Source: an uncultured Chloroflexia bacterium (GTDB lineage: Bacteria > Chloroflexota > Limnocylindria > QHBO01). From it: 64,000 nucleotides of DNA. Position 1 is the first letter of the stretch. Each line of letters starts with the position of its first letter. Location: the NCBI GenBank assembly GCA_963816215.1, contig CAWFKB010000007.1, positions 89,202 through 153,201 of the forward strand. Reading direction: 5' to 3'. Made by a program: the position numbers and the translations under genes. Under the pieces are notes generated by a model that saw only the letters and a program-made list of their open reading frames with translations, ran no database searches and was not told the DNA's origin. Positions 11,130-48,085 of this stretch are shown in pieces.

Positions 11130-11187
11130 CAGGCGCCGGACGGTACCCGATCGGCCCCGGCCCCGCAGCGATGTGTACGATCGGCGC

Positions 11188-30729: not shown

Positions 30730-30967
30730 CGCCCGATCCTACGCGAGAGGAATCGGTCAGAAGGGCTGGTTTTGGGCATTCGAGGGGGATATAGTCGCCC
30801 GCGTCACGCCGCGCCGGCGCCCGTCCCGCGTCGCTCTCGCAGGTCCCGCCGCGCAGGAGAAAGGAGCCGCCCGCCGGCATCACTGTCCCTCGCAACTGCC
30901 TGTGTCCGCCCCGCCCGAACTCGCGGGGTGTTCGCCCCCTTCAGACCCAGCAACAGTGAGGTTTCGG

Positions 30968-32584
30968 ATGTCGCAGATGTCCAGCAAGGACGATGTGCTG
31001 GCGCAGGATCGCAGCGACCTGCACGGCCTCGGCTACGCCCAGGAGCTCCTTCGGTCCATGGGCGGATTCAGCAACTTCGCGATCAGCTTCTCAATCATTT
31101 CCATCCTGACCGGCGCGGTCATCCTCTACAACTACGGCCTCAATCTGGCCGGTCCGGCCGCGGTCGGCATCGGCTGGCCGCTTGTCACGTTCTTCACGCT
31201 GATGATCGCCGCCACCATGGCCGAGCTCGCATCGGCATACCCCACCGCCGGCGGTCTCTACTACTGGGCCAGCAAGCTCCGCAACAAGGACTGGGGCTGG
31301 TGGACGGCGTGGCTGAACCTGGGTGGCCAGGTCTCGATCGTGGCCGGCATCAACTACTCGGCGGCGTTCTTCCTGACAGCCACGATCATCAACCCCCTGC
31401 TCGGCGGGACGTTTGATCCCGCCGCCGATACACTCGGCGTCCAGAACGCCATCTGGATGACCGGCGTCCTCATCGCGATCGAAGTCGTATTCAACGTAGC
31501 CGGAACCCGGATCGTGGCGTTCATGAACGACCTGTCCGTGTGGTGGCACATCTTCTTCGTGGCCGCCATCGCCATCGCCCTGGTGACCATTGGCACGCAG
31601 CCGACCAATGACATCGACTTCCTGTTCACCGTCGCGCCGGCCGGAACGGCGGCGGATGGTACGCCGTGGGAACAGATCATCCCCTTCGGCATTGCGGGTG
31701 CGTTCGCCCTGAGCCTGCTGCAGGCGCAGTGGACATACACCGGGTACGACGCATCGGCCCACGTCGCCGAGGAGACCGTCTTCGCTCGGCGGGCTTCGGC
31801 CTGGGGCGTGTTCCTCTCGGTGGCCGTCTCCGCCATCGCGGGCTACGTCGTCCTCATGGCCCTGAACCTGAAGATGCCTCCGCCGGCTGACGTCATGGCC
31901 AACAGCGGCGGCTTGGGCATCAAGTACATCCTCGAGCAGAACCTGGGCGCGGGCCTCAACAACCTCGGCGGCCTCCTCGCGGCTGGCGTGGCGATCGCGA
32001 TGACGTTCTGCGGCTTCTCGTCGATCGCCTCGGCCGGGCGCATGCTGTTCGCCTTCAGCCGGGACGACGGTGTTCCCGGGAGTCGTTGGCTGAAGAATGT
32101 CAGCCACCGCTTCCGGACCCCGGCCAATTCGGTGATCGCGATCAGCCTCTTCTCGTGGTTGCTGATCATGCTGGTCTACCTGATCTTCACGCTGGCCGGC
32201 GCCGATCCGCTGTTCCTCATCGCCGGAATCGTCGGCGTGAGCACGGTGCTGCTCTACTGGGCCTACGGGCTCTGCATCCTGCTCGGCCTCATCGGCGATC
32301 AGTCATGGCGCGAGCGCCAGACCTGGAGCCTGGGCCGATGGAGCAAGCCGCTGGCCTGGATCTCGGTGATCTGGATCATCCTCATCACCCCGTTGTTCCT
32401 CTATCCGTTCGAGTTGAATGCAGCCTCCCTGGCGACCGTTGCCGGCTTCCTCGTGCTGCTGCTCGTCTACTACTTCGTATGGGCGCGGAGCCGGTTCAAG
32501 GGCCCGATCCCGCAGGGAACGGCCGAAGAGCTGGAAGCCATCGAACGCGAGTTCGAAGATGCGGCGACCGCTATCTCGACCTGA
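30968..32584 (+). CDS. APC-family amino acid/amine permease
   Basis: About 12-TM permease with APC-type segments. ATG at 30968. Confidence 0.8.
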   Translation: MSQMSSKDDVLAQDRSDLHGLGYAQELLRSMGGFSNFAISFSIISILTGAVILYNYGLNLAGPAAVGIGWPLVTFFTLMIAATMAELASAYPTAGGLYYWASKLRNKDWGWWTAWLNLGGQVSIVAGINYSAAFFLTATIINPLLGGTFDPAADTLGVQNAIWMTGVLIAIEVVFNVAGTRIVAFMNDLSVWWHIFFVAAIAIALVTIGTQPTNDIDFLFTVAPAGTAADGTPWEQIIPFGIAGAFALSLLQAQWTYTGYDASAHVAEETVFARRASAWGVFLSVAVSAIAGYVVLMALNLKMPPPADVMANSGGLGIKYILEQNLGAGLNNLGGLLAAGVAIAMTFCGFSSIASAGRMLFAFSRDDGVPGSRWLKNVSHRFRTPANSVIAISLFSWLLIMLVYLIFTLAGADPLFLIAGIVGVSTVLLYWAYGLCILLGLIGDQSWRERQTWSLGRWSKPLAWISVIWIILITPLFLYPFELNAASLATVAGFLVLLLVYYFVWARSRFKGPIPQGTAEELEAIEREFEDAATAIST

Positions 32585-32682
32585 GATCCATGCGACCCTG
32601 AACCAAGGACGGGCCGGCCGGGACAACCGGCCGGCCCGTCTCACCCGAGCGACCTGACACCGTGCCCGACGAGGACTTCGCG

Positions 32683-34062
32683 ATGACGACCACCAAGGAC
32701 CACCCCAGCAAAGCCGTCCTGACCCAGGCCATCCACGACGGGCAGATCGACACCCTGATCGTGGCCCTGACCGACATGCAGGGCCGCCTCATGGGCAAGC
32801 GGGTCCAGGGCCAGGCGTTCCTGAACGGCGCCATCGACCACGGCGCCCACTTCTGCACGTACCTCCTCGGCACGGACATGGAGATGAACACGCCCGATGG
32901 CTTCCAGCTCATGAACTGGGAGACGGGGTACGGCGACTGGATCGCCGATCCGCTATGGGACACCTACCGGGTGGTGCCGTGGCTGGAGAAGACGGCCATC
33001 GTCCTTTCCGACACGGTGGACCACCACGGGCACGAGATTGCCGTCTCGCCACGGACCATGCTCAAGCGCGTCGTCGAGAAGGCGACCGAGATGGGATTCC
33101 GGGCCATGGCCGGTTCGGAGTACGAGTACTACCTGCTGGCCGATACCTACGAGCAGGCCTGGGAGAAGGGCTACGTCGGGCTCAAGCGGTTCGGCTACTA
33201 CAACGAGGACTACCACCTCCTGCAGGCCACCAAGGGCGAGCCGATCCACGGCAAGCTGCGCAACCTCATGACCGAGGCCGGGATCCCGGTCGAGTTCAGC
33301 AAGGGCGAGGCGGCGCCCGGCCAGCACGAGGTCAACATCCACTACACCGACGTGCTGGAGATGGCCGACTGGTCGGTCCTCTTCAAGCACGGGGCCAAGG
33401 AGATCGCCTGGCTGAACGGGATGGGCCTGACCTTCATGGCCAAGCCCGATCACACCTGGACCGGCTCCAGCGGCCACCTGCACATGTCCCTGTGGGACAA
33501 GACCGGCAAGAAGGCGCTCTTCTACGACCCCAAGGCCGAGCCGTACGGCATGTCGAAGACCATGCGCCACTTCCTGGGCGGGATGATGAAGTACTCGCGC
33601 GAGCTCTCGATCTTCTGGGCCTGGAACGTGAACTCGTACAAGCGCTACGCCGTGGCGTCGTGGGCGCCGGTGAACGTGGTGTGGGGGCGGGACAACCGCA
33701 CCACCGGGTTCCGGATCGTGGGCGACGAGTCGGGGCTCCACGTCGAGAACCGCTTCCCCGGCGGCGACATGAACCCGTACCTGGCGTACGCCGCGGTGAT
33801 CGGGGCCGGGCTGCTGGGGATCGAGCGCGAGATCGAGCCGCCGGACGAATACGTGGGAAACGGGTACGTGGCCACCGGCTGCGACCGCATGCCGCGCGCG
33901 CTGCACGAGGCCATCCGCGAGCTCGAGGCCAGCGAGGCGGCAGCCGACATCTTCGGTCCCAACGTCGTGGCCCACTACCTCAACGCGGCGCGCGTGGAGC
34001 AGGAGACCTACGACGCGATCGTCCATCCGTGGGACCGCGAGCGCTACCTGGAACGGGGCTAA
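32683..34062 (+). CDS. Glutamine synthetase-like gamma-glutamyl-amine ligase (PuuA/GlnA3/GlnA4-type)
   Basis: GS catalytic-domain motifs (HYTDVLEMADW, GSSGHLHMSLW, NRFPGGDMNPYLA). I prefer the ATG at 32683 (AGGA 8 nt upstream) over the GTG at 32662. Confidence 0.8.
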   Translation: MTTTKDHPSKAVLTQAIHDGQIDTLIVALTDMQGRLMGKRVQGQAFLNGAIDHGAHFCTYLLGTDMEMNTPDGFQLMNWETGYGDWIADPLWDTYRVVPWLEKTAIVLSDTVDHHGHEIAVSPRTMLKRVVEKATEMGFRAMAGSEYEYYLLADTYEQAWEKGYVGLKRFGYYNEDYHLLQATKGEPIHGKLRNLMTEAGIPVEFSKGEAAPGQHEVNIHYTDVLEMADWSVLFKHGAKEIAWLNGMGLTFMAKPDHTWTGSSGHLHMSLWDKTGKKALFYDPKAEPYGMSKTMRHFLGGMMKYSRELSIFWAWNVNSYKRYAVASWAPVNVVWGRDNRTTGFRIVGDESGLHVENRFPGGDMNPYLAYAAVIGAGLLGIEREIEPPDEYVGNGYVATGCDRMPRALHEAIRELEASEAAADIFGPNVVAHYLNAARVEQETYDAIVHPWDRERYLERG

Positions 34063-34065
34063 CCG

Positions 34066-34833
34066 ATGCGATTGAGCGACAAGGTCGCCGTCATCACCGG
34101 CGCCGGAAGCGGGATGGGCCGCACGGCGGCCCTGATGTTCGCGGCCGAGGGCGCCAAGGTGGTGGTGGCCGAGTACGACGAGGCGGCCGGCGCCGAAACC
34201 CGCGACCAGGTGATGGCCGCGGGCGGGGACGCCGTGTTCGTGAAGACCGATGTCTCGTCAGAGACCGATGCGGCCGCCATGGTGGCGGCCGCCATGGATC
34301 GGTATGGGCGGCTGGACGTCCTCTACAACAATGCCGGGATCATGCCCGAGGCCGATCACTCGGTGACCGACACCGACGTCGAGACCTGGGACCAGGTGAT
34401 GGCCATCAACGTCCGTGGCGTGTTCCTGGGCTGCAAGTACGCGATCCCGCGCATGCTGGAGCAGGGGTCCGGATCGGTCATCAACATCAGCTCGTTCGTC
34501 GCCCTGCTCGGCTGCTCGGTCCCGCAGGACGCGTACACCGCCTCGAAGGGCGCCGTGCTGTCGCTGACCCGGTCATTGGCCGTCCAGTTCGGTCCCCAGG
34601 GAGTGCGCTCCAACGCCATCTGCCCCGGCCCCATCGAGACGCCGCTCCTCATGGACTGGCTGCTGAAGGACGAGGCGGCCAAGAACCTGCGCCTCGCCCG
34701 CAACCCCACCGGCCGGTTCGGCAAGCCCGAGGAGATCGTGAACGTGGCTGTCTACCTGGCCTCGGACGAGTCACGCTGGACGAACGGCGCCCATTTCGTC
34801 ATCGACGGCGGAATCAGCGTCAACTACTTCTAG
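34066..34833 (+). CDS. Short-chain dehydrogenase/reductase
   Basis: TGAGSGMG cofactor motif, NNAG, catalytic YTASK. Confidence 0.85.
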   Translation: MRLSDKVAVITGAGSGMGRTAALMFAAEGAKVVVAEYDEAAGAETRDQVMAAGGDAVFVKTDVSSETDAAAMVAAAMDRYGRLDVLYNNAGIMPEADHSVTDTDVETWDQVMAINVRGVFLGCKYAIPRMLEQGSGSVINISSFVALLGCSVPQDAYTASKGAVLSLTRSLAVQFGPQGVRSNAICPGPIETPLLMDWLLKDEAAKNLRLARNPTGRFGKPEEIVNVAVYLASDESRWTNGAHFVIDGGISVNYF

Positions 34834-34882
34834 GGCCGGGCAACAGGTCGCTCGCCTGACCGGGGATATACTCGGGCCCCTG

Positions 34883-36373
34883 ATGACGACCGAAACGACC
34901 GCCGCCGCTGACCTTGCCCCGAGCGTGGGCGCGATGCAGATGATCATTGGTGGCGAGCACGTGGACGCCGCTGACGGGCAAACGTTCGAGGTCATCAACC
35001 CGGCCACCGGAGCGGTACTGGCGACGGCCCCCATGGGCGGCCCCGAGGACGTCAACCGGGCGGTCGCCGCGGCCCAGAAGGCCCTGGACGACCCGAAGGG
35101 CTTCTCGTCCTGGTCAGCAGCCAAGCGCGGCCGCGCCCTCCAGAAGCTGAGCAACCTGGTCAAGGATCACCTGGAGGAGCTGGCTCAGCTCGAGAGCCGC
35201 AACGTGGGCAAGCCCATCTCCGGCGCCCGCGGCGAGGCCTTGGGGGTCAGCCTCGTGTTCGAGTACTACGCCGGCGCGGCCAACAAGCATTTTGGCCAGA
35301 CCATCCCAACCAGCAAGCCGGGGCTCGACTTCACGCTGCGCGAGCCCATCGGCGTGGTGGGCCTGATCGTGCCCTGGAACTTCCCGATGAACATGGCGTC
35401 CTGGAAGCTGGGGCCTGCCCTGGCCACCGGCAACGCCTGCATCCTCAAGCCGGCCTCCTACACGCCGCTCACCGCGCTGCGACTCGGGGAGCTGGCGCTG
35501 GAAGCCGGGTTCCCGCCGGGCATCGTGAACGTGGTCACCGGTCCGGGCGGCACCGCGGGTGCGGCCATCGCCGCCCATCCAGGGGTTGGCAAGGTGGCCT
35601 TCACCGGCGAGACGACGACCGGCCAGGAGATCCTGCGCCTGGCGGCGGGGAACGTGAAGAAGGTGAGCCTCGAGCTGGGCGGAAAGAGCCCGAACATCGT
35701 GTTCGCCGACGCCGACCTGGACCGATTCGCCCGCGAGTCGCCCTACGCGGTGTTCGACAACGCCGGCCAGGACTGCTGTGCGCGGAGCCGGATCTTCGTC
35801 GAGGCATCGGTTCACGACCAGGTCGTGGCCGCCTTCATCGAGGCCACGCGCAACGTCAAGGTCGGTGACCCCGCCGACGAGGGGACTGAGATGGGGAGCC
35901 TCGTCAGCCAGCGCCAGCGCGAGCGGGTGGCGGACTACATCCAGGTCGGCCGGGACGAGGGAGCGGAGCTGGCGTATGGCGGGGAGGCCCCGACCGGTGA
36001 TCCGTTCGACGACGGCGCATACCTGATGCCCACCATCTTCGACGGCTGCCGGACCGACATGCGGATCGTGCGCGAGGAGATCTTTGGTCCGGTGGTTGCC
36101 ATCATCCCGTTCGCGGACGAAGCGGAGGCCGTGCGCCTGGCCAACGACACGCCGTATGGGCTGTCGGGATCGGTCTGGAGCCGGGACATCGGCAAGGCGA
36201 TCCGGGTCGCCAAGGGCCTCAAGGCGGGCGTCCTGTCGGTGAACTCCAACAGCAGCGTGCACACCGAGGCGCCCTTCGGCGGCTACAAGATGAGCGGGAT
36301 CGGGCGCGAGCTGGGAATGGGGGCGCTCGACCTGTTCACCGAGGTCAAGAACGTCTTCGTCGACCTGACCTGA
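34883..36373 (+). CDS. NAD(P)-dependent aldehyde dehydrogenase
   Basis: 496 aa. ELGGKSP and the Cys context QDCCARSRIFVEAS. Full-length ALDH. Confidence 0.85.
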   Translation: MTTETTAAADLAPSVGAMQMIIGGEHVDAADGQTFEVINPATGAVLATAPMGGPEDVNRAVAAAQKALDDPKGFSSWSAAKRGRALQKLSNLVKDHLEELAQLESRNVGKPISGARGEALGVSLVFEYYAGAANKHFGQTIPTSKPGLDFTLREPIGVVGLIVPWNFPMNMASWKLGPALATGNACILKPASYTPLTALRLGELALEAGFPPGIVNVVTGPGGTAGAAIAAHPGVGKVAFTGETTTGQEILRLAAGNVKKVSLELGGKSPNIVFADADLDRFARESPYAVFDNAGQDCCARSRIFVEASVHDQVVAAFIEATRNVKVGDPADEGTEMGSLVSQRQRERVADYIQVGRDEGAELAYGGEAPTGDPFDDGAYLMPTIFDGCRTDMRIVREEIFGPVVAIIPFADEAEAVRLANDTPYGLSGSVWSRDIGKAIRVAKGLKAGVLSVNSNSSVHTEAPFGGYKMSGIGRELGMGALDLFTEVKNVFVDLT

Positions 36374-36374
36374 G

Positions 36375-37807
36375 TTGACTCCGCCTCCGTTCCAGCTCCC
36401 CGAGACCCGCCCCGCTCCCCTCACCATTCGCCGGTTCGCCGCGCTCGTGGCGGGCAAGGCGGCGGCCAGCGCCACCCGTCTCACCGGTCGAGGCGGCGGA
36501 ACCTCGCTGCCGGGGATGGTCGCCCGGCGGCTGGACCCCGGCATCCTGTCGGACCTGGTCGGGGACCGGGGGGTGCCGGTCCTGGCCATCACCGGGTCCA
36601 ATGGCAAGACCACGACCGCCCGGTTCACCGCTGCCCTCCTCCGGGCGGCCGGCCTCCCGGTTGCTCATAACCAGGCGGGCGCGAACCTCGTCCAGGGGGT
36701 GACCTCTCTGGCGGTAGCAACGGCCGATCTCCGGGGCCGTATGCCGCCAGTGGTGCTGGTGAGCGAGATCGACGAGGGCGCGCTCCCGCTGGTGGCGCCC
36801 GAGATCCGGCCCCGTGCCATCCTCGTGACGAACCTCTTCCGCGACCAGCTGGATCGGTACGGCGAGATCTATGCCGTGGCCGACCTCTTCGAGTCGGTCG
36901 CGGCTGGGCTGCCGGCGGACAGCGTGCTGGTCGTGAATGCCGATGATCCGATCGTGGCCGGGCTGGCGCCGGGTCGTCTCGGGACGCTGCGTCACGTTCG
37001 GCATGGACCTCGCCGAGTCGACGGACACCATCACCCGGGCCGCGGACACGATCCGCTGCCCGGTGTGTCGGGCGGACCTCGTCTACGACAAGGTCTACCT
37101 CTCGCACATGGGCGCGTGGCACTGCGATGCCTGCGGCCTGACCCGCCGCGAGCTGGACGTGGCGGTGACCGCGGTCGAGGTCCGCGGACTGGCCGAGACG
37201 CGCTTCACCGTCCGCACGCCGGATCGCGTCCTGGAGCTGACGGTCCCCCAGTCGGGCGTGCACGTCGCCTACGACGCGGCGGCGGCCATCGCCCTGGCCT
37301 ACGGCCTGGGCGTCGTCCCTGGATCACGCGGCAGAGGCGCTGGCGGCGGTCGGCCCTGCCTTCGGACGGCTGGAACGGATCACGGCCGGCGACCGCCAGA
37401 TCGTGCTGGGCTTTGCGAAGAACCCCACCTCGTACAACACGACCCTGCGCGCCCTCGCCACCGAGGGCCTGCCCGAGCAGCTGCTGATCGCGGCCAGCAA
37501 CACGCTCGTTGACGGCGAAGACTTCGGGTGGCTGTGGGACGTGGAGTTCGAGGGCGCGGTCCCACGGATCAAGGCCGCCACGGTCTCCGGCCTCCGCGCC
37601 GACGAGCTGGCCAACCGGCTGAAGTACGCGGGGCTGGACCCGGCGCGCATCACCGTGGTCGAGGACCGCGTCCCGGCCCTGGACCACGCCCTGGCCGGAC
37701 TCGAGCCCGGCGGCGTGCTCACCGTGCTGGCGGGCTACACCCCGACCATCGAGCTCCGCGAGGAGATGCGCCGTCGCGGCTGGGTTGGGCGATACTGGGC
37801 CGCATGA
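36375..37807 (+). CDS. murT: Lipid II isoglutaminyl synthase subunit MurT (Mur-ligase-like + DUF1727), with two apparent frameshifts
   Basis: TTG start 1 nt after the ALDH stop. AITGSNGKTTT P-loop, Cys4 zinc ribbon CPVCRADL...HCDACG, and C-terminal LGFAKNPTSYNTTLRAL. The gene is spread over three frames, with shifts near 36981 and 37318. Confidence 0.7.
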
Positions 37808-38606
37808 CCGAGTCCGGGTACCCCACCCTGCGCATCGCCCACCTCTACCCGTCGCTGCTTAACGTGGCCGGTGACGGAGGCAACGTGATGGCCCTCGTCC
37901 AGCGCTGCGCCTGGCGCGGCATCCCGACCGAGGTCGTCGACGTCGAGCAGGGGGACAAGCCCGACTTCACGACCTTTGACCTGATCCTGTTCCATGGCGG
38001 GCAGGACGTGGAGATGGAGGTCGTGGCGGCCGACCTGGGGCTCAAAGTGCCGTCCCTGCGGGAGGCCGCTGACCAGGGCGTCGTGATCTTCGCGGTGTGC
38101 GCAGGCCTTCAGTTGCTCGGCAACCGGTACACCCCGTCCGACGGCGAGGCCCTGGAGGGCGCGGCCATCCTCGACCTGGAAACCCACGGAGGACCGGAGC
38201 GCTTCATGCAGCACGCGGCGGTCGAGGTGACCCTCAACGGCGAGACGGGCACGGTCGTGGGGTTCGAGAACCATTCAGCGGCCAGACCATCCTCGGCCCC
38301 GGCGCCCAGCCCTTCGGGACCATGGTCGCCGGCGCCGGCAACAACGGCAGCGACGGGACCGAGGGCGCCGTGCGCGACCACGTGTACGCCACCTACCTCC
38401 ACGGACCGGTGCTGCCCAAGAACCCGTGGCTGGCCGACCAGCTCATCAAGATCGCCCTCGAGCGACGGATGGGCCACCCGGTGGAGCTCGCTCCCCTCGA
38501 CGACGAGGCGGAGACGCGCGCCCACGAGGTGACCCTGGCCAAGGCCCTTCGCAATCGCGGTCAGCGGACGGCGCTCACCCCGGCCGAACTGGTCCGCAAC
38601 CGGTAG
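37804..38606 (+). CDS. gatD: Lipid II isoglutaminyl synthase glutaminase subunit GatD (CobQ-type GATase), with one apparent frameshift
   Basis: ATG overlaps the murT stop (ATGA). VIFAVCAGLQLLG carries the Cys nucleophile. The C-terminal half (GAGNNGSDGTEGAV...HGPVLPKNPW) is in another frame from about 38280. Confidence 0.7.
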
Positions 38607-38627: not shown

Positions 38628-38657
38628 TTGACGGCGCCGAAAGGCGGCGCCCATACT
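38628..38657 (+). promoter_or_regulatory. Candidate sigma70-type promoter (TTGACG-N18-CATACT) preceded by an A8 tract, upstream of the permease/kinase/oxidase operon
   Basis: TTGACG at 38628-38633 and CATACT at 38652-38657. A8 run at 38616-38623, unusual in a 70% GC sequence. About 100 nt upstream of the TTG start at 38757, which has an AAGGAGA RBS. Confidence 0.35.
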
Positions 38658-38756: not shown

Positions 38757-40385
38757 TTGACCGCGGATCAGACCCACGCCGAGCAGGTCGCCAAGGATGA
38801 CGCGCACCTCGAGTCGCTCGGCATCAAGCCCCAGCTGAGCCGGCGGCTCGGCTACTTCTCCAGCTTCGCAGTGGCGTTCAGCTACATCAGCGTCGCGACT
38901 GGTTCGTTCACCCAGCAAGCAGTCGCCATTGGAGTGGGCGGCCCGCCCTTCATCTGGGGCTGGTTCCTCGTCATCCTCGGTCAGACGTTCGTGGCCCTGA
39001 ACTTTGCCGAACTGTCGAGCCATTTCCCGGTGGCTGGATCGATTTATCAGTGGTCGAAACGACTTTCGAACAAGACCCTGGGCTGGTTCACCGGCTGGTT
39101 CTACTTCTGGGCCGGTGTCCTGACCGTGACCGCCGTCGCCGCCACCGTCCCGTACGTGATGTCGCCGCTGTTCGGAATCGACCTGTCCGCCGCGAGTCCG
39201 ATCCCGTTCCTCAATACGTGGTCGTTCCTGTCGATCATCGCGCTCCTGGTTTCGACGACCATCAACGCGTTCGGCGTGCGGCTCTTGACCTTCCTGAACA
39301 ACCTCGGTGTCGCCGCCGAGATCCTGGGCATGATCGTGTTCGCCCTGGTCCTGCTGATCTTCGCCAATCACCAGCCGATCTCGGTCATCTTTGACACGTC
39401 GTACACGGCCAACCTGGCTGGTGGGAACTACTTCGCCGTGTTCCTGGTGGGCATGTTCCTCGCCCTGTTCGTGGTCTATGGATTCGACACGGCCGGAACC
39501 TTTGGTGAGGAGACCGTCAACGCCAGCAAGCACGCCCCGCGCGGTGTCCTCGCGGCGATCTGGCTGTCTGGCATCGCCGGGTTCCTGTTCCTGCTCGGCG
39601 TGATTCTGTCCTTCAAGGACATCGGGGCCGCCGTCGCCGAAGGGCAGGCGTTTGGCTTTCCCTTCGCAACCACCATCAAAGAGAACCTGAACCAGGAGTT
39701 AGTCGGGGGAGTGACGCTCGGTGACGTCTATCTGGTGGTCATCCTGATCGCAGTCTCCGTCTGCACCCTGGCCATTCAGGGCGCGACGACCCGCCTGATG
39801 TTCTCGATGGGACGCGACGGCCGCCTGCCGTTCGGGAAGACCTGGGCCCACGTCAACAAGTCCTTCAAGACCCCAACCAATGCCGCGCTCGGAGTGGGCG
39901 TCCTCTCCGTGGTGCCCTTGCTCGTCACCGGCGCGCTGGCGGCGTTCTACCTCGCCATTGCGGCCACCGGAACGATCTACATCAGCTACTTCCTGTGCAA
40001 CTGGGGAGTCCTGCGCGCCCGACGACGCGGCTGGCCGCACAAGGCTGCCTGGTTCAAGCTCGGCAGTTGGGGAACGATCCTCAACTTCCTGGCCCTGGTG
40101 TGGGGCGGGCTGATGATCATCAACATCGGTATCTGGGAGAGCCCGATCTTCGGAGACTTCGGCAACGAACTCCGGAGCATCTGGTCCAACCCGCCGATCA
40201 ACACCTTCCTCCAATGGAACGGTGAGACGCTGTCCGACCTTCCCGCAATCCCGGTGTTCGAGTTCTTCGTCGGCTCGGTCCTGACCATCGGCGTGCTGTA
40301 CTACGTTCTGAGCGGTCAGCGCCGCAAGGAGGACGTCGTCCAACTCGAGGCGGATACCGCCACCGGCGAGACGATGATCGCGTAA
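38757..40385 (+). CDS. APC-family amino acid/amine (choline/ethanolamine-type) permease
   Basis: 542 aa, about 12 TM. TTG start with AAGGAGA 6 nt upstream. Confidence 0.8.
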   Translation: MTADQTHAEQVAKDDAHLESLGIKPQLSRRLGYFSSFAVAFSYISVATGSFTQQAVAIGVGGPPFIWGWFLVILGQTFVALNFAELSSHFPVAGSIYQWSKRLSNKTLGWFTGWFYFWAGVLTVTAVAATVPYVMSPLFGIDLSAASPIPFLNTWSFLSIIALLVSTTINAFGVRLLTFLNNLGVAAEILGMIVFALVLLIFANHQPISVIFDTSYTANLAGGNYFAVFLVGMFLALFVVYGFDTAGTFGEETVNASKHAPRGVLAAIWLSGIAGFLFLLGVILSFKDIGAAVAEGQAFGFPFATTIKENLNQELVGGVTLGDVYLVVILIAVSVCTLAIQGATTRLMFSMGRDGRLPFGKTWAHVNKSFKTPTNAALGVGVLSVVPLLVTGALAAFYLAIAATGTIYISYFLCNWGVLRARRRGWPHKAAWFKLGSWGTILNFLALVWGGLMIINIGIWESPIFGDFGNELRSIWSNPPINTFLQWNGETLSDLPAIPVFEFFVGSVLTIGVLYYVLSGQRRKEDVVQLEADTATGETMIA

Positions 40386-40406
40386 GTTCCCGTTGCGCCC
40401 GCCCAG

Positions 40407-40443
40407 GCGAGCGGCTCGGCGCCCCGGCGCTCGAGCCGCTCGC
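40407..40443 (+). repeat. Strong GC-rich inverted repeat/hairpin between the permease and kinase genes
   Basis: GCGAGCGGCTCG GCGCC CC GGCGC TCGAGCCGCTCGC: arms of about 17 bp with a single bulge. Confidence 0.5.
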
Positions 40444-40475
40444 GCATTTCCGCACGAGATTCGAGGGCCGCTGGA

Positions 40476-41444
40476 TTGACCGATCCCCCCTTTCCCCCGC
40501 CCGATGACGAACCGCTCCACGGCGAGCTGGCGGAGCACCTGTCTGACGCCCTCCAGCGCGTCCCGGAGACGGCCGGGCGCGACCTCACTTTCACCCCGCT
40601 CTCGGGCGGGATCACGAACCGGAACTTCCTGATCACCGTCGCCGGCGAGGCGGATCGGTACGTCATCCGCCTGGCAGGCAACGACACCTTCCTGCTGGGC
40701 ATCAGCCGCGAGGTGGAGCACGCCGCCACCGTGGCCGCCGCCGGCGTGGGGGTGGGCCCCGAGGTGGTCGCCTTCATCAAGCCCGAGGGCTACCTCGTCA
40801 CCCGCTTCATCATCGGTCAGCCGGTCAGCGACGACGCCGTGCGCGATCCCGCCACCCTGGCCCGGGTGGCCGACTCCATCCGCCGGGTCCACGGCGGGCC
40901 GGCCATCCCCGGCCTGTTCGTTCCGTTGCGGATCTGCGACGCGTACCACGCCCTCGCATCGGCCCGCGGCGTCCCGGACCCGGCCGGCTGGGACGCGGCG
41001 CTGGCCGCGGGACGGCGGATCGAGCGCGCCCTGCTGGATGCGCCGCTCCCCCTGGCGCCGTGCCACAACGACCTGCTCAACGCGAACTTCATCGACGACG
41101 GCGAGCGGATCCGGATCGTGGACTGGGAGTACGCCGGCATGGGCGACCTGTTCTTCGACCTGGGCAACTTCAGCATCAACCACGAGCTGAGCCCCGAGCA
41201 GGACGTCACCTTCCTGTGTGCCTACGACCAGACCGATGCGCCTGACCCCGCGCGCCTCGCGCGGCTGACGCTCATGCGCGTGGTGTCCGACTTCCGCGAG
41301 GCAATGTGGGGCGTCCTCCAGCAGGCGATCAGCACCCTGGACGTGGACTTCGTGGAATACGCCGACGAGCACTTCGACCGGCTGCTGCGCCATGCCGCGG
41401 AGCCGCGCTTCGAGGACGCCCTGCGCGAGGTCGCCGGTGGCTGA
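40476..41444 (+). CDS. Choline/ethanolamine kinase-family phosphotransferase (LicA-like)
   Basis: TPLSGGITNRNFLI (Brenner-type) and HNDLLNANFIDDGERIRIVDWEYAGMGDLFFDLGNF. TTG start with GAGGG 9 nt upstream. Confidence 0.75.
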   Translation: MTDPPFPPPDDEPLHGELAEHLSDALQRVPETAGRDLTFTPLSGGITNRNFLITVAGEADRYVIRLAGNDTFLLGISREVEHAATVAAAGVGVGPEVVAFIKPEGYLVTRFIIGQPVSDDAVRDPATLARVADSIRRVHGGPAIPGLFVPLRICDAYHALASARGVPDPAGWDAALAAGRRIERALLDAPLPLAPCHNDLLNANFIDDGERIRIVDWEYAGMGDLFFDLGNFSINHELSPEQDVTFLCAYDQTDAPDPARLARLTLMRVVSDFREAMWGVLQQAISTLDVDFVEYADEHFDRLLRHAAEPRFEDALREVAGG

Positions 41445-43864
41445 CGCCGCGCGCGTCGTGATCATCGGCGGGGGCGTGGGCGGAACAGCCATCGCCTATC
41501 ACCTCGCCCGACTGGGCTGGACCGAGGTCGTGCTCCTCGAACGATCGGAACTGACCAGCGGATCCACGTTCCACTCCGCGGGTCTGGTGGGCCAGCTCCG
41601 CGCCAGCCCGACCTTGACCCGGATGATGGTCGACTCAGTGGATACCTACCGCCAGCTCCAGGCCGAGACCGGCGTGGATCCCGGCTGGCGCGAGGTTGGA
41701 TCGCTCCGCCTGGCCTCCAGCGCCGAACGGATGGAGGAGCTGCGCCGCCAGGCCGGCTGGGCCAAGGCCTATGGGCTCGAGATGGCGCTCGTCTCCGCCG
41801 ACGAGGCGCAGGCCCGCTTCCCGCTCATGTCAACCGCGGGCGTGCTCGGCGCGGCCTGGCTCCCCACCGACGGCTACCTCGACCCCTCGGGTCTGACCCA
41901 GGCCCTCGCCGCGGGCGCCCGCCAGCGCGGAGTGGACATTCGGACCCGGACCCGGGTCACCGCCATCACGGTCGTGAACGGGCGCGTGACCGGGGTGGAG
42001 ACCGATGCCGGACCGATCCAGGCCGAATTCGTCGTCAACGCGGCGGGCATGTTCGCGCCGGAGGTCGGCCGCCTGGCCGGAGTCGCCGTCCCGATCATCC
42101 CGTTCGCGCACCAGTACCTCGTGACCGAGCCCATCGACGGCGTGACCCCGGATCTGCCCGCAGCTGCGTGACCCCGATCATCTGGTCTACTTCCGGCCCG
42201 AGGTCGGCGGCCTGGTGATGGGCGGCTACGAGCGCGATCCGGCCGCGTGGGGACTGGACGGCATCGCCCCCGACTTCAACGGCAAGCTCCTGCCGCCCGA
42301 CTGGCCGCGCTTCGAGGAGATCAGCCGCGGCGCGGTCCTCCGGGTGCCTGCCATGGCCACCGCCGGCGTGCGGCAGCTGATCAACGGCCCGGAGGGCTTC
42401 ACTCCCGACAACGAGTTCATCCTGGGCGAGACCGAGGTGCGCGGCTTCTGGGTCGCCGCCGGCTTCTCGGCCCACGGGATCGCCGGCGCGGGCGGGATGG
42501 GCCGCCAGGTCGCGCACTGGATCGTGGACGGCGAGCCGGAGTACGACCTGTGGAAGATGGACATCCGCCGGTTCGGGGCGCAGTACCGGTCACGAACCGT
42601 CGTCCAGGCGCGGGCCACCGAGAACTACGCGACCTACTACGACATCCACTACCCCAACGAGGAACGGCAGTCCGCCCGGGCGCTGCGCCTCTCCCCAACG
42701 TACGGGCGCCTGGCCGAGCTGGGCTGCGCGTTCGGCGAGAAGTCCGGCTGGGAGCGACCGAACTGGTTCGACAGCAATGCCCCGCCGGGCGACCCGGCGC
42801 TCCGCCCGCGCGGATGGGCGGGCCACCACTGGTCACCGGCCATCGAGGCCGAGGCCCTGGCCACCCGCACGACCGCCGCCCTGTTCGACGAGACGAGCTT
42901 CTCGAAGATCGAGATCAGCGGGTCGGGCGCGCTCGCCTTCCTGCAGCGCCTGTGCGCCAACGACATGGACCGACCCATCGGTCGAATCACGTACACCCAG
43001 ATGCTCAACCGCCGGGGCGGGATCGAGTGCGACTTCACCGTCACCCGCCTCGCGGCGGATCGGTTCTTCATCGTCACCGGCACCGCGTTCGGGAATCACG
43101 ACCTGGGCTGGATCCGGTCGCATGCCCCCGACGACGGCAGCGTGACCCTGACCGATGTGACCTCGGCCCGGGCGTGCCTCGGCATCTGGGGTCCGCGCGC
43201 GCGCGACATCGTGGCCTCGACCAGCACCGATGACTGGTCGAACGACGCATTCCCCTACCTGAGCGCCCGCCAGGTGAGCGTCGGCCCGGTTCCCGTCCTG
43301 GCGCTGCGGGTCACGTATGTCGGGGAGCTGGGCTGGGAGCTCTACGCCCCCATGGAATACGGCCTCGTCCTGTGGGACACGCTGTGGGCCGCCGGGAAAC
43401 CGCACGGCATGGTGGCCGGCGGCTACCGGGCGATCGAGGCACTGCGTCTGGAGAAGGGTTACCGGGTGTGGTCGAGCGACATCACGCCCGACGACTCCCC
43501 GGACCAGGCGGGTTTGGGGTTCGCGGTCCGGATGGGCAAGGCCGAGCTGTTCATCGGCCGCGACGCGCTCGAAGCCGCCCGGGCGGGCGGGGTGGATCGG
43601 CGCCTGTGCTGCCTGGTCCTCGACGAGCCGCTGGCCGTGGCGCTGGGCAACGAGCCGATCCGGATCGGGCAGCAGGTCGTGGGACGCGTGACGTCCGGTG
43701 GCTACGGGTACACGGTCGGGGCCAGCATCGCCTACGGCTACCTCCCCGCGGCGCAGGCCGACGTGAATCAGCGGGTCGAGGTCGAGATCTTCGGGGAGTG
43801 GGTAGGCGGAACGGTGAGCGCCGAGCCGTTGTTCGACCCCAGCGGGGAGCGGATCCGGGCCTGA
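41437..43864 (+). CDS. Dimethylglycine/sarcosine dehydrogenase-family FAD oxidoreductase fused to a GcvT-like aminomethyltransferase domain, with one apparent frameshift
   Basis: GTG overlaps the kinase stop. N-terminal FAD motif VVIIGGGVGGTAIAYHL and a DAO domain. HQYLVTEPIDGV, then a stop in this frame, while LRDPDHLVYFRPEVGGLVMGGYE continues in the next frame from about 42158. C-terminal GcvT-like folate-binding domain. Confidence 0.7.
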
Positions 43865-43865
43865 C

Positions 43866-44618
43866 CTACTGCGCGGCGGCGCGGCGGATGGCCGCGTGGG
43901 CCCGGGCCGCCTCGACGAACGAGGCCCACAGCCGCTCGAACTCGGGGGAGGTGAACTCCGTCCGCTCGGGATGGCTCTGGATGCCCATCACCCAGCGGCT
44001 CGGGTTCGCGTCCTCGAGCGCCTCCACCAGGTCGCCTTCCGGATGCGCGCTATAGCCGCTGACGGTGAGCCCGGTCCCCACCTGGTCCGGACGGACGGCC
44101 TGGTGGTGGTACGTGTTCACCGAGGCGATCGACTCGCCCAGCACCTCGGCCAGTCGCGTTCCGGCCTCGATCTCCATGTCATGGGCCTTGGCCTCGGGCG
44201 CAGGGTACGCCGGGCTGGTGTGGCCCTCGATGTCCTGCACGAGCGCGCCGCCACGGAACACGTTGATGGCCTGCATCCCGCGGCACACGCCAAAGATCGG
44301 GACGTCCTGCGCTTCGGCGGCGGCGAAGGCCGCCTGCTCAAGGGCGTCGCGGCCGGGTTCCACCACGGTCGTGGGATGGGGCTCCTCTCCGTACAGGGCA
44401 GGGGCCAGGTCCGCGCCACCGGACAGCAGCAGGCCGTCCATCGTGTCAAAGGCGGCCTCGCGCTCGGCGGCGCTGCTGTCCTCGTTGAGCGCGATCACGT
44501 CGCCACCGTGTCGCGCCACGGCCTCGAAGTAGCGGTCGTTCTTCTGCCAGGCCACTTCCTCGTTCGCCGCGTGCTCGGGCGACTGGACGGTGACCACGAT
44601 CCGCGGCGGACGATCCAT
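43866..44618 (-). CDS. Gamma-glutamyl-GABA hydrolase-family protein (PuuD-like, class I GATase/peptidase C26)
   Basis: GVCRGMQ nucleophile elbow and a His context near the C-terminus. 250 aa. Confidence 0.75.
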   Translation of the reverse strand: MDRPPRIVVTVQSPEHAANEEVAWQKNDRYFEAVARHGGDVIALNEDSSAAEREAAFDTMDGLLLSGGADLAPALYGEEPHPTTVVEPGRDALEQAAFAAAEAQDVPIFGVCRGMQAINVFRGGALVQDIEGHTSPAYPAPEAKAHDMEIEAGTRLAEVLGESIASVNTYHHQAVRPDQVGTGLTVSGYSAHPEGDLVEALEDANPSRWVMGIQSHPERTEFTSPEFERLWASFVEAARAHAAIRRAAAQ

Positions 44619-44698: not shown

Positions 44699-45688
44699 AT
44701 GACCGATTCGCGTCGTCTTCGACTTCCCGTGGTCCTGCTCGTCGTTGGCCTGCTGGCCATCGCGACCGCCTGTCAGCCGCCGAGCGCCTCCGCGTGCGGG
44801 CTGGTCGACTACGCGACGACCATCCAGACCGATCTCGACACCCTGACGGCACTGGACGCCACCCAGGTCGCGACGGCCGGGACACCCGACAACGTCACCG
44901 CGCTGGCCACCCTGGACACGCTCGACGCCACGGTGGTCGAAGCCCAGGCGGCCCTCGACGCGGCATCGGACGACGAGGTCAACACCGTGACGCGGACCTC
45001 CTTCCAGGCCGTGCTGGACGCAACCTCGGCCGCAACGTCATCGATGCGGACGGCCATCGAATCCGGAGACGCGGGTCAGGTCAGTTCGGCCATAACCGGT
45101 CTCCAGGTTGCTTCGGCGGCCATCGGCGCGTTCACCGGCCTGGTGAACGGGCTCGGGGAGGACTGCCCGACCGCCTCACCGAGCGAGTCGACAGCCGCGA
45201 GCGCCTCCGCGGAGGCAACGCTCGAACCGACCCTGGCCCCGACCGTCGCACCCACCGCCACCCCCGTCCCACCCACGGACACCCCTGCGCCGACGGCAAC
45301 CCCAGCGGAAACCGAGTCCGAGACGGAGGCTGAAGCCACCCCGACCGCCACGCCTGCGCCGACCGCGACACCTACCCCAACGCCCACCCCCACGCCAACG
45401 CCGAGCCCGTCCCCCACTCTGAGCCCGACTATCGAGCCGAGCCCTTCTGCCTCCGAGCCACCTACGCCGGATGACGAGGGCAGCGGGCTACTGCCGTGGA
45501 TCCTGGTCCTGGGTGTCGGTGGCCTGGGTGCCGCCATCGTCGTCCTGTGGTACGCCAACCGCAACGACGAGGGCGAGCCGCCCGACGAGTTCGGGACGCC
45601 GCCCGACGAGTTCGGTGGACCGGACCAGGGGACCTCCGCACCGCCGCCTGTCGGTGGTGCGCCGCCACCGACCGCGCCGCAGTCCTAG
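44699..45688 (+). CDS. Lipoprotein with Pro/Thr-rich spacer and C-terminal TM anchor
   Basis: LAIATAC lipobox, long TPTPAPTATP low-complexity region, C-terminal hydrophobic helix, PPDEFG repeats. Confidence 0.55.
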   Translation: MTDSRRLRLPVVLLVVGLLAIATACQPPSASACGLVDYATTIQTDLDTLTALDATQVATAGTPDNVTALATLDTLDATVVEAQAALDAASDDEVNTVTRTSFQAVLDATSAATSSMRTAIESGDAGQVSSAITGLQVASAAIGAFTGLVNGLGEDCPTASPSESTAASASAEATLEPTLAPTVAPTATPVPPTDTPAPTATPAETESETEAEATPTATPAPTATPTPTPTPTPTPSPSPTLSPTIEPSPSASEPPTPDDEGSGLLPWILVLGVGGLGAAIVVLWYANRNDEGEPPDEFGTPPDEFGGPDQGTSAPPPVGGAPPPTAPQS

Positions 45689-46747: not shown

Positions 46748-48085
46748 TCAGAACCTCACGTCCGACCACAGGTCGAGGGCCTGGCGCAACTCGGGACAGC
46801 TCTGTGCCGCATGCTGGAGTGTCTGCCCGGCAGCGACCGCCTCGACCGCGGCGCGCGCCGCAACTGCGCCGGCTCGGCTCCCTCCGGGATGCCCATGCAC
46901 GCCGCCGCCGAACAGGAAGAAGGCATCCGTGCCGAAGACCGCGTGGAGCTGGGGGAGGTGGCCCGGGTGCAGGCCGCCCGAGGCCACGGGCACGACAGGT
47001 TTGATCGCACCCCACTCCTGGTCGAACAGCGTCCCGCCGCCGGCGGGTGCAAATGCGGCGGTCATCATGCGGCGCCGTTCGCCCATCTCCTCGATCGTTC
47101 CTTCGAGCTTCCCCACGCCCGTGCCGACATGGAGATGATCAACGCCCATCAACCGCGCCCACTTTGCGATGACCAGGAAGTCCACGCCGTGATCGGGGTG
47201 ACGATCCATGACCGCGTGCATGGCCCGGTGTGCGTGCAGCGCCAGTCCCAGGCGCTCAGCCTCCGCACGGAGAGACGCGGTCGCCGCAAAACCCGCCGTC
47301 AGAAAGTCGACCATCACGAAACGTCCCCCCCGATCGGCGACCACGTTGGCGCGGCGAAGCATCTCCTCGGTGTTGGCGGCGGTGACGTTGGCCCAGTAGC
47401 CCTTGCGCTCTCCGGTCTCGGCCTCGGCGCGCTGCACGAGCTCAAGTGTTCGCTCGATGCGTTCGTCAAAGGGAGACCACGCCTGACTGTTGAGGTTCTC
47501 GTCGTCCTTGATGGTGTCGATCCCGCCGCTCAGGGTCTCGTAGGCGCGTCGTGCATGCTCAGCCGGCGAGAGTCCCAGCTTCGGCTTAATGGTTGAGCCC
47601 GTGAGCGCCCTGCCATGCACGTTCAGCTTCTCCCGAACGCCCGCCATGCCGAAGGCCGGCCCCGGGAAGGAATCGACCAGGGGGAGCGGGATGCGCATGT
47701 CGAGCAGGCGGAGCGCGCTCACCGCCTTGAAGCCGAACACATTGCCGACCACGCTGGACAGGATGTTCGGAATGCTGCCGAACTCGAACAGGTCGATCGG
47801 GTACGCGATCCAGACGAGGCCGTTGGCGATCCGGTACACGCGCGCCCGAAGCTCGTAGGCCAGACCTTCGTCGTCCTCGCCGACCTCGGTCCACGTCCCG
47901 GTCGAGGATTCGGCCGCCACCGCAGCCGCGGCCTCTTCCATCGACGTGTCCGCCCGCGGAGCGACCTTGAACGCGACCAGCAGATCCGTCGCAATCGGCA
48001 CGTAGTCGAGGGCCAGGTACAGCTCCTGGTACGAGTGGACTCCACGGGTCCGCTCAGGTCCTGTCCGCGCGGTGGTCTGGCTCAC
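46748..48085 (-). CDS. rbcL: Ribulose-1,5-bisphosphate carboxylase/oxygenase large subunit (no small subunit nearby; form II/III-like)
   Basis: 445 aa with the active-site residues of a genuine RuBisCO: GSTIKPKLGLS, GGIDTIKDDENLNSQ, HAHRAMHAV, HLHVGTGVGKLEG, PVASGGLHPG, LFGGGVHGHPGG. N-terminal GTWTEV and VGNVFGF. Confidence 0.85.
   Translation of the reverse strand: MSQTTARTGPERTRGVHSYQELYLALDYVPIATDLLVAFKVAPRADTSMEEAAAAVAAESSTGTWTEVGEDDEGLAYELRARVYRIANGLVWIAYPIDLFEFGSIPNILSSVVGNVFGFKAVSALRLLDMRIPLPLVDSFPGPAFGMAGVREKLNVHGRALTGSTIKPKLGLSPAEHARRAYETLSGGIDTIKDDENLNSQAWSPFDERIERTLELVQRAEAETGERKGYWANVTAANTEEMLRRANVVADRGGRFVMVDFLTAGFAATASLRAEAERLGLALHAHRAMHAVMDRHPDHGVDFLVIAKWARLMGVDHLHVGTGVGKLEGTIEEMGERRRMMTAAFAPAGGGTLFDQEWGAIKPVVPVASGGLHPGHLPQLHAVFGTDAFFLFGGGVHGHPGGSRAGAVAARAAVEAVAAGQTLQHAAQSCPELRQALDLWSDVRF

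Follow-up and report, generated by a model that had tools for sequence, protein, structure and literature searches.

The locus at positions 38757–43864 of a 64-kb stretch of DNA from an uncultured Chloroflexia bacterium (the whole stretch analysed, hereafter the window; about 70% G+C) encodes an amine permease of the APC superfamily, a kinase of the choline/ethanolamine kinase family and a flavoenzyme of the dimethylglycine dehydrogenase/dimethylglycine oxidase (DMGDH/DMGO) family. It is interpreted here, with a probability of roughly 45%, as a conserved catabolic module for an N-methylated amino-alcohol, probably N-methyl- and/or N,N-dimethylethanolamine, in which the kinase would act before the oxidase. 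The permease would bring in the methylated base, the kinase would phosphorylate its hydroxyl, and the DMGDH-family flavoenzyme would oxidise an N-methyl group of the phospho-ester, its GcvT-type domain handing the one-carbon (C1) unit to tetrahydrofolate (THF) and leaving phosphoethanolamine. The phosphate would thereby play the part of anionic handle that the carboxylate plays in dimethylglycine and sarcosine. The substrate, the order of the two enzymes and the fate of the product are deduced from the gene families, the catalytic residues, and the gene order and its conservation, all of which were read directly from the sequences. The features of the locus are as follows.

38757–40385, + strand: APC-superfamily amine permease, putative substrate importer, 542 amino acids (Pfam AA_permease_2, 127 bits)
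40407–40443, + strand: GC-rich hairpin or palindrome in the permease–kinase spacer, 16-pair stem
40476–41444, + strand: choline/ethanolamine-kinase-family kinase, 322 amino acids, TTG start, R-E-x-x-W subfamily (Pfam Choline_kinase and APH)
41437–42171, + strand: DMGDH/DMGO-family oxidase, 5' part in frame 1, GTG start, premature TGA
42143–42171, + strand: frame-change interval of the oxidase gene, extra base at about 42156–42160
42161–43864, + strand: DMGDH/DMGO-family oxidase, 3' part in frame 2 (remaining DAO, FAO_M, GCV_T and GCV_T_C)

Open reading frame coordinates and Pfam assignments (AA_permease_2; Choline_kinase; DAO, FAO_M, GCV_T and GCV_T_C) agreed, and they placed the three genes at the positions and in the families given in a preliminary description of this DNA. 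The kinase stop codon (TGA, 41442–41444) and the oxidase start codon (GTG, 41437–41439) lie in an 8-nucleotide overlap of the two genes (GTGGCTGA), which is also present in the related loci L001, L088, L089 and L091. Coupling by overlap, first proposed for all three genes, holds for kinase and oxidase only, permease and kinase being separated by a spacer of 90 nucleotides; the GTG, said to be on the kinase stop codon, sits 5 nucleotides before that stop and not on it. The TTG start of the kinase lines up with the ATG of the L002 kinase. In the permease, the AA_permease_2 match covers residues 31–456; the best NCBIfam models, TIGR03428 and TIGR00907, both scored below their cut-offs and match at subfamily level only.

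To describe the conservation of the locus, a scan with a 12-sequence kinase alignment, limited to one genome per species, was carried out. It returned 80 loci, about 63 of them from Limnocylindria-type Chloroflexota and the remaining ones from Gaiellaceae and other Actinomycetota and from Dormibacterota (kinase identity 49–59%). An exact look-up of the window kinase gave no hit; kinase homologs of 75–93% identity were found in metagenomes, several of them labelled Candidatus Limnocylindria (Chloroflexota). For the neighbourhood counts the window proteins were mapped by tblastn onto 83 loci. An orthologous oxidase (at least 60% identity) adjoins the kinase in 58 of the 60 loci with at least 4 kb downstream, a DMGDH-family gene is present in 79 of the 83 loci, and a permease ortholog lies upstream of the kinase in 46 of them. 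Genomic co-occurrence thus bore out the association of kinase and oxidase drawn in the preliminary description, the pair being kept in nearly all loci of sufficient length and in four phyla. Conservation of the pairing in Chloroflexota, Actinomycetota, Dormibacterota and Alphaproteobacteria supports a functional coupling and not a chance neighbourhood. A HisN-like phosphatase of the inositol monophosphatase (IMPase) family was located directly 3' of the oxidase in 34 loci, Dormibacterota included, and a metallophosphoesterase gene between kinase and oxidase in 25; one and/or the other would free ethanolamine in most relatives. Since importer, kinase, N-demethylase and phosphatase recur, phosphorylation, demethylation of the phospho-ester and dephosphorylation, in this order, would be the simplest reading. 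A compact form without phosphatase genes was found in the window, L001, L088 and L089.

The kinase matched Choline_kinase (PF01633) with 73.4 bits (cut-off 29) and APH with 71.3 bits (cut-off 23.2). Its best relatives in the PDB were 3dxq (1e-38), deposited as a choline/ethanolamine kinase family protein, and LicA (4r77, 9e-18), and the models for APH(6)-Ic, APH(3') and homoserine kinase stayed near noise (E values from 3e-4 to 7e-4, about 19–20 bits), in agreement with the assignment to the choline kinase family made earlier. The Brenner motif H197-N-D199-L-L-N-A-N204 and D216-W-E218-Y219 were invariant in the family alignments. Catalytic residues D199, N204, D216, E218 and T47 were retained in the HMMER alignment to LicA, the first four aligning with Asp176, Asn181, Asp194 and Glu196. 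The choline site of LicA consists of an aromatic cage (Tyr197, Trp251, Trp254 and Tyr268) plus the rim residue Glu213 (PMC4364537). Three of the four cage aromatics are kept (Y219, W278 and Y295); Trp251 is replaced by Glu275, placed after the invariant Arg274, and the rim Glu213 by Asn235, and the label "LicA-type" used in the preliminary description is therefore too specific. The resulting R-E-x-x-W motif was present in 65 of the 150 best cluster representatives, and the kinases linked to an oxidase in Shinella, Ruegeria and Labrenzia have it too. Placed in the amine pocket, a carboxylate would favour a protonated primary, secondary or tertiary amine over a quaternary one. In natural fusion proteins, members of the kinase family are combined with EutH (ethanolamine permease family), with an APC permease or with a HAD hydrolase, and the EutH-fused kinase has R-E-x-x-W. 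Because of the choline/ethanolamine kinase fold and motifs, these three kinds of fusion and the motif shared with the EutH fusion, the kinase points to an ethanolamine-type base as its probable substrate. The closest curated family was GntI (266 bits, below the cut-off of 357), whose phosphorylation target is the N-hydroxyl beside the dimethylamino group of an N-methylated intermediate (PMC12371840).

Read with one base deleted, as in its relatives (see below), the oxidase has 808 amino acids and matched DAO (253 bits), FAO_M (70 bits), GCV_T (262 bits) and GCV_T_C (76 bits), all above cut-off, and it aligned over its full length to DMGO of Arthrobacter globiformis (1pj5, 2e-164) and to human DMGDH (5l46, 1e-162). 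Residues His46, His225/Tyr251 and Asp532 align with His48, His225/Tyr259 and Asp552 of DMGO; His48 is the covalent-FAD residue and Asp552, mutated in PDB 3gsi, the residue for methylene-THF formation. Because these residues are conserved, the oxidase appears equipped both for amine oxidation and for C1 transfer to THF. Flavin amine oxidation needs a nitrogen lone pair, so that secondary and tertiary N-methyl amines are possible substrates and choline and phosphocholine are excluded. The role of the His/Tyr dyad is catalytic (PMC5082570).

Identity of the oxidase was 39% to DMGO, 44% to a paralog described below (oxidase2), 47–48% to the kinase-linked alphaproteobacterial enzymes and 65–81% among the orthologs of three phyla, orthologs of different phyla sharing 65–68%. 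The signature H-x-A-G-L-V-G-Q-L-R55 was common to all kinase-linked oxidases, R55 lying nine residues past the flavinylated His; this position is occupied by Asn57 in DMGO, by His in human DMGDH and by Asn in oxidase2, which lacks the flavinylation His. An ordinary dimethylglycine or sarcosine oxidase of the choline–betaine–dimethylglycine route, with the kinase serving a separate purpose such as choline/ethanolamine salvage, would agree with the full-length architecture and the complete set of DMGO/DMGDH catalytic residues, as well as with a nearby aldehyde dehydrogenase (ALDH) resembling betaine-aldehyde dehydrogenase (TIGR01804, 530 bits, below the cut-off of 669). This alternative is highly doubtful: the low identity to DMGO contrasts with the closer kinase-linked group, genes for choline dehydrogenase, betaine demethylase and BHMT were not seen in the loci, and if the two enzymes shared no pathway, a pairing kept across phyla, start/stop overlap included, would be difficult to account for. 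Genomic context and clade signature suggest instead a substrate other than dimethylglycine or sarcosine.

A protein search of plasmid records gave 131 records matching the kinase, four of which show the kinase–oxidase pair: in Shinella, Ruegeria and Labrenzia the two genes overlap by 4 nucleotides or are spaced by 8–9 nucleotides, and in Rhodobacteraceae M382 their order is reversed. The locus of Shinella sp. HZN7 comprises a DeoR regulator, a betaine/choline-type ABC importer, the kinase and an 813-amino-acid "FAD-dependent oxidoreductase" (4-nucleotide overlap), with a FrmR-type formaldehyde repressor adjoining. Ruegeria sp. AD91A carries the same set and, after the oxidase, an "inositol monophosphatase family protein" that scored as HisN-like. 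Importers and DeoR/FrmR-like regulators would fit the proposed pathway. The kinase homologs of A. vitis and Acidisoma, which carry W-x-x-W, lie in an unrelated context. For the cultured Alphaproteobacteria examined, RefSeq names were only "phosphotransferase" and "FAD-dependent oxidoreductase", and profile searches gave no specific NCBIfam model for either kinase or oxidase. The Ruegeria binding protein matched PDB 4xz6 (2.5e-80), deposited as a glycine betaine/proline ABC-transporter substrate-binding protein; 4xz6 is also known as the trimethylamine N-oxide-binding protein TmoX. An N-oxide or N-hydroxy substrate, considered on account of TmoX and of the GntI match, was rejected, because quaternary N-oxides are beyond the reach of flavin amine oxidases and the loci offer no other support for such a substrate.

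These loci also bear on the identity of the amine. The same module might handle a different hydroxylated N-methyl amine, for instance N-methyl-1-amino-2-propanol, N-methylserinol, or an amino-sugar or inosamine in methylated form; GntI, acting on an N-hydroxyl beside a dimethylamino group, shows the substrate range of the kinase family, and DeoR regulators and IMPase-family phosphatases are typical of sugar-phosphate pathways too. We consider this quite unlikely, since a two-carbon amino-alcohol is indicated by the EutH fusions, by the importers of betaine/choline type and by the gamma-glutamyl module described next. Mono- or dimethylethanolamine is proposed as the most likely substrate because of the kinase family, including its fusions to EutH, the importers of choline/betaine type and the adjacent module capable of converting ethanolamine to glycine.

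Two other choline/ethanolamine-related loci that the preliminary description had reported are indeed present in the window, the second of them together with a C26 peptidase gene. These features, with the promoter match upstream of the permease, are the following.

10951–13536, + strand: APH kinase fused to a class-III aminotransferase-fold phospho-lyase (Pfam APH and Aminotran_3)
30902–36373, + strand: gamma-glutamylation module of APC permease, glutamine-synthetase-like ligase, SDR and aldehyde dehydrogenase (Pfam/NCBIfam)
38628–38657, + strand: sigma-70-like promoter match TTGACG-18-CATACT, about 100 nucleotides 5' of the permease start (consensus scan)
43866–44618, - strand: Peptidase C26/gamma-glutamyl hydrolase-like protein (Pfam Peptidase_C26, 156 bits)

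The consensus scan gave one promoter site against 0.4 expected, which is weak evidence. All NCBIfam matches of the gamma-glutamylation module were below equivalog cut-offs. The module adjoins the kinase–oxidase pair in Limnocylindria (L001–L012), stands beside it in other order and orientation in Actinomycetota (L074, L078 and L083), and may thus be linked to it; the C26 hydrolase gene, found at the same position in L001, L004, L039 and L089, probably belongs to the module. In L002 (3939–5351), L003 and L007 the gene of a 470-amino-acid protein without family match separates those of SDR and ALDH. The module fits an ethanolamine-to-glycine logic that has reportedly been proposed for GlnA4 of Streptomyces. 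In this genome the product of the demethylation would pass to the glutamine-synthetase-like ligase, SDR, ALDH and C26 hydrolase, ending in glycine; alternatively, the kinase/phospho-lyase fusion, 27 kb away, would consume it and is a possible phosphoethanolamine sink. The C-terminal domain of the fusion matched a phospholyase (PDB 5g4i, 1e-94) and human ethanolamine-phosphate phospho-lyase (6tor, 2e-88).

The reverse order of steps was also weighed. Demethylation might come first, the oxidase turning the free N-methylated amino-alcohol into ethanolamine and the kinase then making phosphoethanolamine for lipid synthesis or for a phospho-lyase, whose products would be acetaldehyde, ammonia and phosphate. 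In line with this are the fusion of the kinase subfamily to EutH with the same pocket motif, the phosphoethanolamine phospho-lyase-like domain encoded in the window and the lack of a phosphatase adjacent to the pair in the window. We judge it unlikely: the order kinase–oxidase–phosphatase recurs, and a phosphatase acting after the kinase would undo such a route; the clade-specific Arg55 speaks for an anionic substrate; and the precedent of Eubacterium limosum, detailed below, is kinase-first. To our knowledge, every characterised DMGDH-family substrate bears an anionic group, which a free amino-alcohol does not.

Returning to phosphorylation before demethylation, the data are compatible with an aerobic pathway of phospho-base demethylation, in which a distinct clade of the DMGDH family, fed by the kinase and followed by a HisN-like phosphatase, would act on phospho-dimethyl- and phospho-monomethylethanolamine; this extended scheme is put forward tentatively. 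Several observations count against the kinase-first model. The oxidase gene of the window is frame-broken, and homologs of the phosphatase genes of the relatives were not found anywhere in the 64-kb window. The HisN-like protein, at 241–247 bits against TIGR02067 (cut-off 275), is just below cut-off and might be a true histidinol-phosphatase, although the substrate of HisN, histidinol phosphate, is likewise the phosphate of an amino-alcohol. Replacement of Trp by Glu in the kinase pocket is not universal among oxidase-linked kinases, as the M382 kinase and the paralog kinase2 retain W-x-x-W, and the EutH fusions could mean that ethanolamine itself is the substrate, the kinase acting after demethylation. 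Arg55 may be regarded as a candidate for binding an additional anionic group, its phosphate role being a guess from clade-specific conservation, by which the question of a phosphate site was judged and which cannot place residues in three dimensions. As for the undescribed route suggested in the preliminary description, the literature searched, the coverage of which was incomplete, held no account of a route combining a kinase with a DMGDH-like flavin/folate enzyme.

The oxidase gene, previously taken as one open frame, was found to be split: frame 1 runs from 41437 to 42171, with TGA at 42169–42171, and the remainder, up to 43864, is in frame 2. Both frames are open together only in 42143–42171, so the shift lies there; in tblastn with the L001 oxidase, residues 1–241 mapped to 41437–42159 in frame 1, and the frame changes after codon 241. 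The window has 10 nucleotides (CTGCCCGCAG) where L001, L002 and L088 have 9, that is, one extra base at about 42156–42160, and deletion of one base restores the 808-amino-acid protein reading ...LPQLRDPDHLVYF..., the same as in the relatives. The frame of 808 amino acids was intact in all relatives checked (L001, L002, L088, L089 and L091). L088 is the closest of them (kinase 93% identical), and the indel is the sole one relative to the window across the 3.4 kb of kinase and oxidase. Third-position GC of the two halves was 0.88 and 0.93, gene-like values, with no further stops.

The genes for MurT and GatD (lipid II isoglutaminyl synthase; 36375–38606), intact in L001, are also frame-broken in the window, MurT being split over three frames with shifts near 36984 and 37314–37319 and GatD over two near 38277. 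Since four indels (oxidase, GatD and two in MurT) fall within 7.5 kb and affect cell-wall genes as well, the break in the oxidase is probably an assembly or sequencing error and not biology. A real break, which would make the oxidase a very recent pseudogene and the module non-functional in this organism, is somewhat unlikely. It is present in the sequence as given, and the upstream MurT and GatD breaks fall outside obvious homopolymers; against it stand the gene-like composition of both halves, the single indel relative to L088, the intact gene of every relative checked, the resemblance of this cluster of indels to assembly error and the fact that many related public genomes are long-contig metagenome-assembled genomes. 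A programmed +1 shift at CCC-GCA is a remote and scarcely credible alternative: slippage of tRNA-Pro from CCC to CCG ahead of the rare codon GCA would restore exactly LPQLRD and the site is thus compatible, but the relatives are unshifted and the neighbouring genes are broken too.

The hairpin at 40407–40443, at which the preliminary description had envisaged that a terminator might split the operon, is real, the fold giving a GC stem of 16 pairs. The window spacer (40386–40475) was compared with those of L001, L002, L005, L008, L010, L012, L015, L018 and L088. The 21-nucleotide 5' arm (GAGCGGCTCGGCGCCCCGGCG) was identical in the ten loci, in which the coding flanks have diverged to 68–87% protein identity, and compensatory changes were found in the stem (U-A replacing U-G in the window; G-C and A-U in L012). 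A TATCGT/TATCTT hexamer follows the hairpin in six relatives, with AGGAG then preceding the kinase start. No T tract was detected 3' of the hairpin and the terminator scan of the window made no call there; for these reasons, and given a fold z-score of -1.5 in GC-rich context, a classical intrinsic terminator was rejected, as was a repeated mobile or REP element, the hairpin being single-copy in the window and occurring once per related locus. Possible roles of the hairpin are those of a U-less terminator or attenuator, an end-stabiliser of mRNA or a protein-binding palindrome, and the permease–kinase spacer may be an operator/promoter region or an RNA element. Whatever the hairpin does, the conserved core of the locus is the kinase–oxidase unit.

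In 22 of the related loci a second DMGDH-family gene, of the oxidase2 type, was present, in 11 of them with accompanying genes (L004, L014, L016, L023, L028, L039, L047, L048, L051, L059 and L066; e.g. L014, 12901–19185). The order of this second module is oxidase2, a weakly Metallophos-like protein of 331 amino acids, an APC permease and kinase2, and it is accompanied by a 290-amino-acid protein with a faint nucleotidyltransferase match. Kinase2 is 34% identical to the kinase and has the canonical W-x-x-W choline-type cage. This paralogous module lies next to the first one in many Limnocylindria, and its Metallophos-like gene is a further sign that phosphatases accompany such pairs. The second module is absent from the window. 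In L089 (394–1179) and L090 (2274–3059) a 261-amino-acid protein takes the place of the permease, 1 nucleotide before the kinase; it gave a weak nucleotidyltransferase-fold match (NTP_transf_5, E value 1e-4), and its position beside the kinase recalls the LicA/LicC kinase–cytidylyltransferase pairing. The class-III aminotransferase gene downstream in many relatives was considered as a phospho-lyase partner and rejected; it was treated as a separate unit because it travels with a polyamine-type ABC transporter (ABC_tran with TOBE_2, and BPD_transp_1).

Other genes of the window were recorded as well. The oxidase gene and the convergent C26 hydrolase gene end 1 nucleotide apart (43862–43868), as also in L001, L088 and L089, so there is no space for a terminator between them. 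An open reading frame of 329 amino acids at 44699–45688 (+ strand) has gene-like codon bias and no Pfam match even at E = 1; its L001 counterpart showed 48% identity in one tblastn and was missed by the reciprocal search. A RuBisCO large-subunit homolog of 445 amino acids with both Pfam domains lies about 3 kb downstream (46748–48085, - strand), and in L089 (6622–8954) a phosphoribulokinase-family gene comes after the RuBisCO homolog, hinting at a Calvin–Benson–Bassham-type or nucleotide-salvage function in the lineage. Further proteins are a MerR-HTH/3xGAF/GGDEF protein of 944 amino acids (2984–5818, + strand), a PASTA-domain Ser/Thr kinase (18105–19643, + strand) and a dihydropteroate synthase/dihydroneopterin aldolase fusion for folate synthesis (22155–23261, + strand).

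Bacterial and plant lipids contain methylated ethanolamines as head groups, and anaerobic demethylation of choline also produces them; we are not aware of any aerobic route established for them in bacteria. If the proposed pathway is correct, phospho-base demethylation would be widespread among the Chloroflexota, Actinomycetota and Dormibacterota of soils and among Alphaproteobacteria of marine and rhizosphere habitats, and it would connect the turnover of methylated amines with the folate C1 pool in soil lineages that are abundant but uncultured, Limnocylindria for example. A well-studied flavoenzyme family would gain a new substrate class, and a gene pair with only generic RefSeq names would be explained. 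It would also be the second independent case in which phosphorylation creates an anionic handle before demethylation, suggesting a general evolutionary shortcut by which carboxylate-binding enzymes are recruited to alcohol substrates. As cultured Ruegeria and Shinella carry the pair, the hypothesis is directly testable.

Among known systems, DMGO of A. globiformis (1pj5) and mammalian DMGDH (5l46, 4pab) share with the window oxidase the four-domain architecture, aligned end to end, together with the flavinylation His, the His/Tyr dyad and the methylene-THF Asp. The window oxidase differs from them in its sequence (about 39% identity) and its membership in a kinase-linked group with its own G-L-V-G-Q-L-R signature, in being encoded with a kinase and, usually in relatives, a phosphatase and not with betaine or sarcosine genes, and in its presumed substrate, a phosphate ester instead of a carboxylate. 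LicA of Streptococcus pneumoniae (4r77) and 3dxq share with the window kinase the protein-kinase-like fold family, the Brenner motif and the catalytic Asp/Asn/Asp/Glu; relative to LicA, one of the four cage aromatics and the rim Glu are exchanged, R-E-x-x-W stands for W-x-x-W, and the genomic role would be catabolic instead of the decoration of the cell wall with phosphorylcholine.

The gamma-glutamylation module of the window resembles the Puu route of Escherichia coli and the GlnA4 route of Streptomyces in its glutamine-synthetase-like ligase, alcohol/aldehyde oxidation pair and C26 gamma-glutamyl hydrolase; we know of no description of such a module coupled to a kinase/N-demethylase pair. 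In the PEAMT/PMT pathway of plants, nematodes and Plasmodium, methyl chemistry takes place at the level of the phospho-base, through phosphoethanolamine and phospho-mono- and phospho-dimethylethanolamine. The same intermediates are proposed here, in the opposite direction, with unrelated enzymes and with FAD and THF instead of S-adenosylmethionine (SAM).

The nearest parallel in logic is anaerobic. In E. limosum, choline must first be phosphorylated by MthK, the corrinoid methyltransferase MthB demethylating phosphocholine and not choline, and the phosphate was considered by the authors to replace the carboxylate recognised by related enzymes (PMC12155760). The preliminary description had suggested an undescribed route; no flavin/folate version was found described, whereas kinase-first demethylation has this precedent (PMC12155760). 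The enzyme families and the kinase-first logic are thus known, and the flavin/folate implementation and the likely substrate class are undescribed. MthK/MthB/MthC/MthA and the present locus, as modelled here, would have in common a choline-kinase-family step placed first (MthK is only distantly related to LicA), a demethylase that takes the phospho-ester alone and the transfer of the methyl carbon to THF; they share the co-localisation of kinase and demethylase genes. They differ in that the E. limosum system is anaerobic and corrinoid-dependent, its MttB-family methyltransferase attacking a quaternary amine, with methyl-THF as the product, whereas here a flavin oxidase or dehydrogenase, by the established chemistry of its family, would act on secondary and tertiary amines only and yield methylene-THF. 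By this analogy, the present module would be the flavin/folate equivalent of MthK/MthB, acting on the next methyl groups down.

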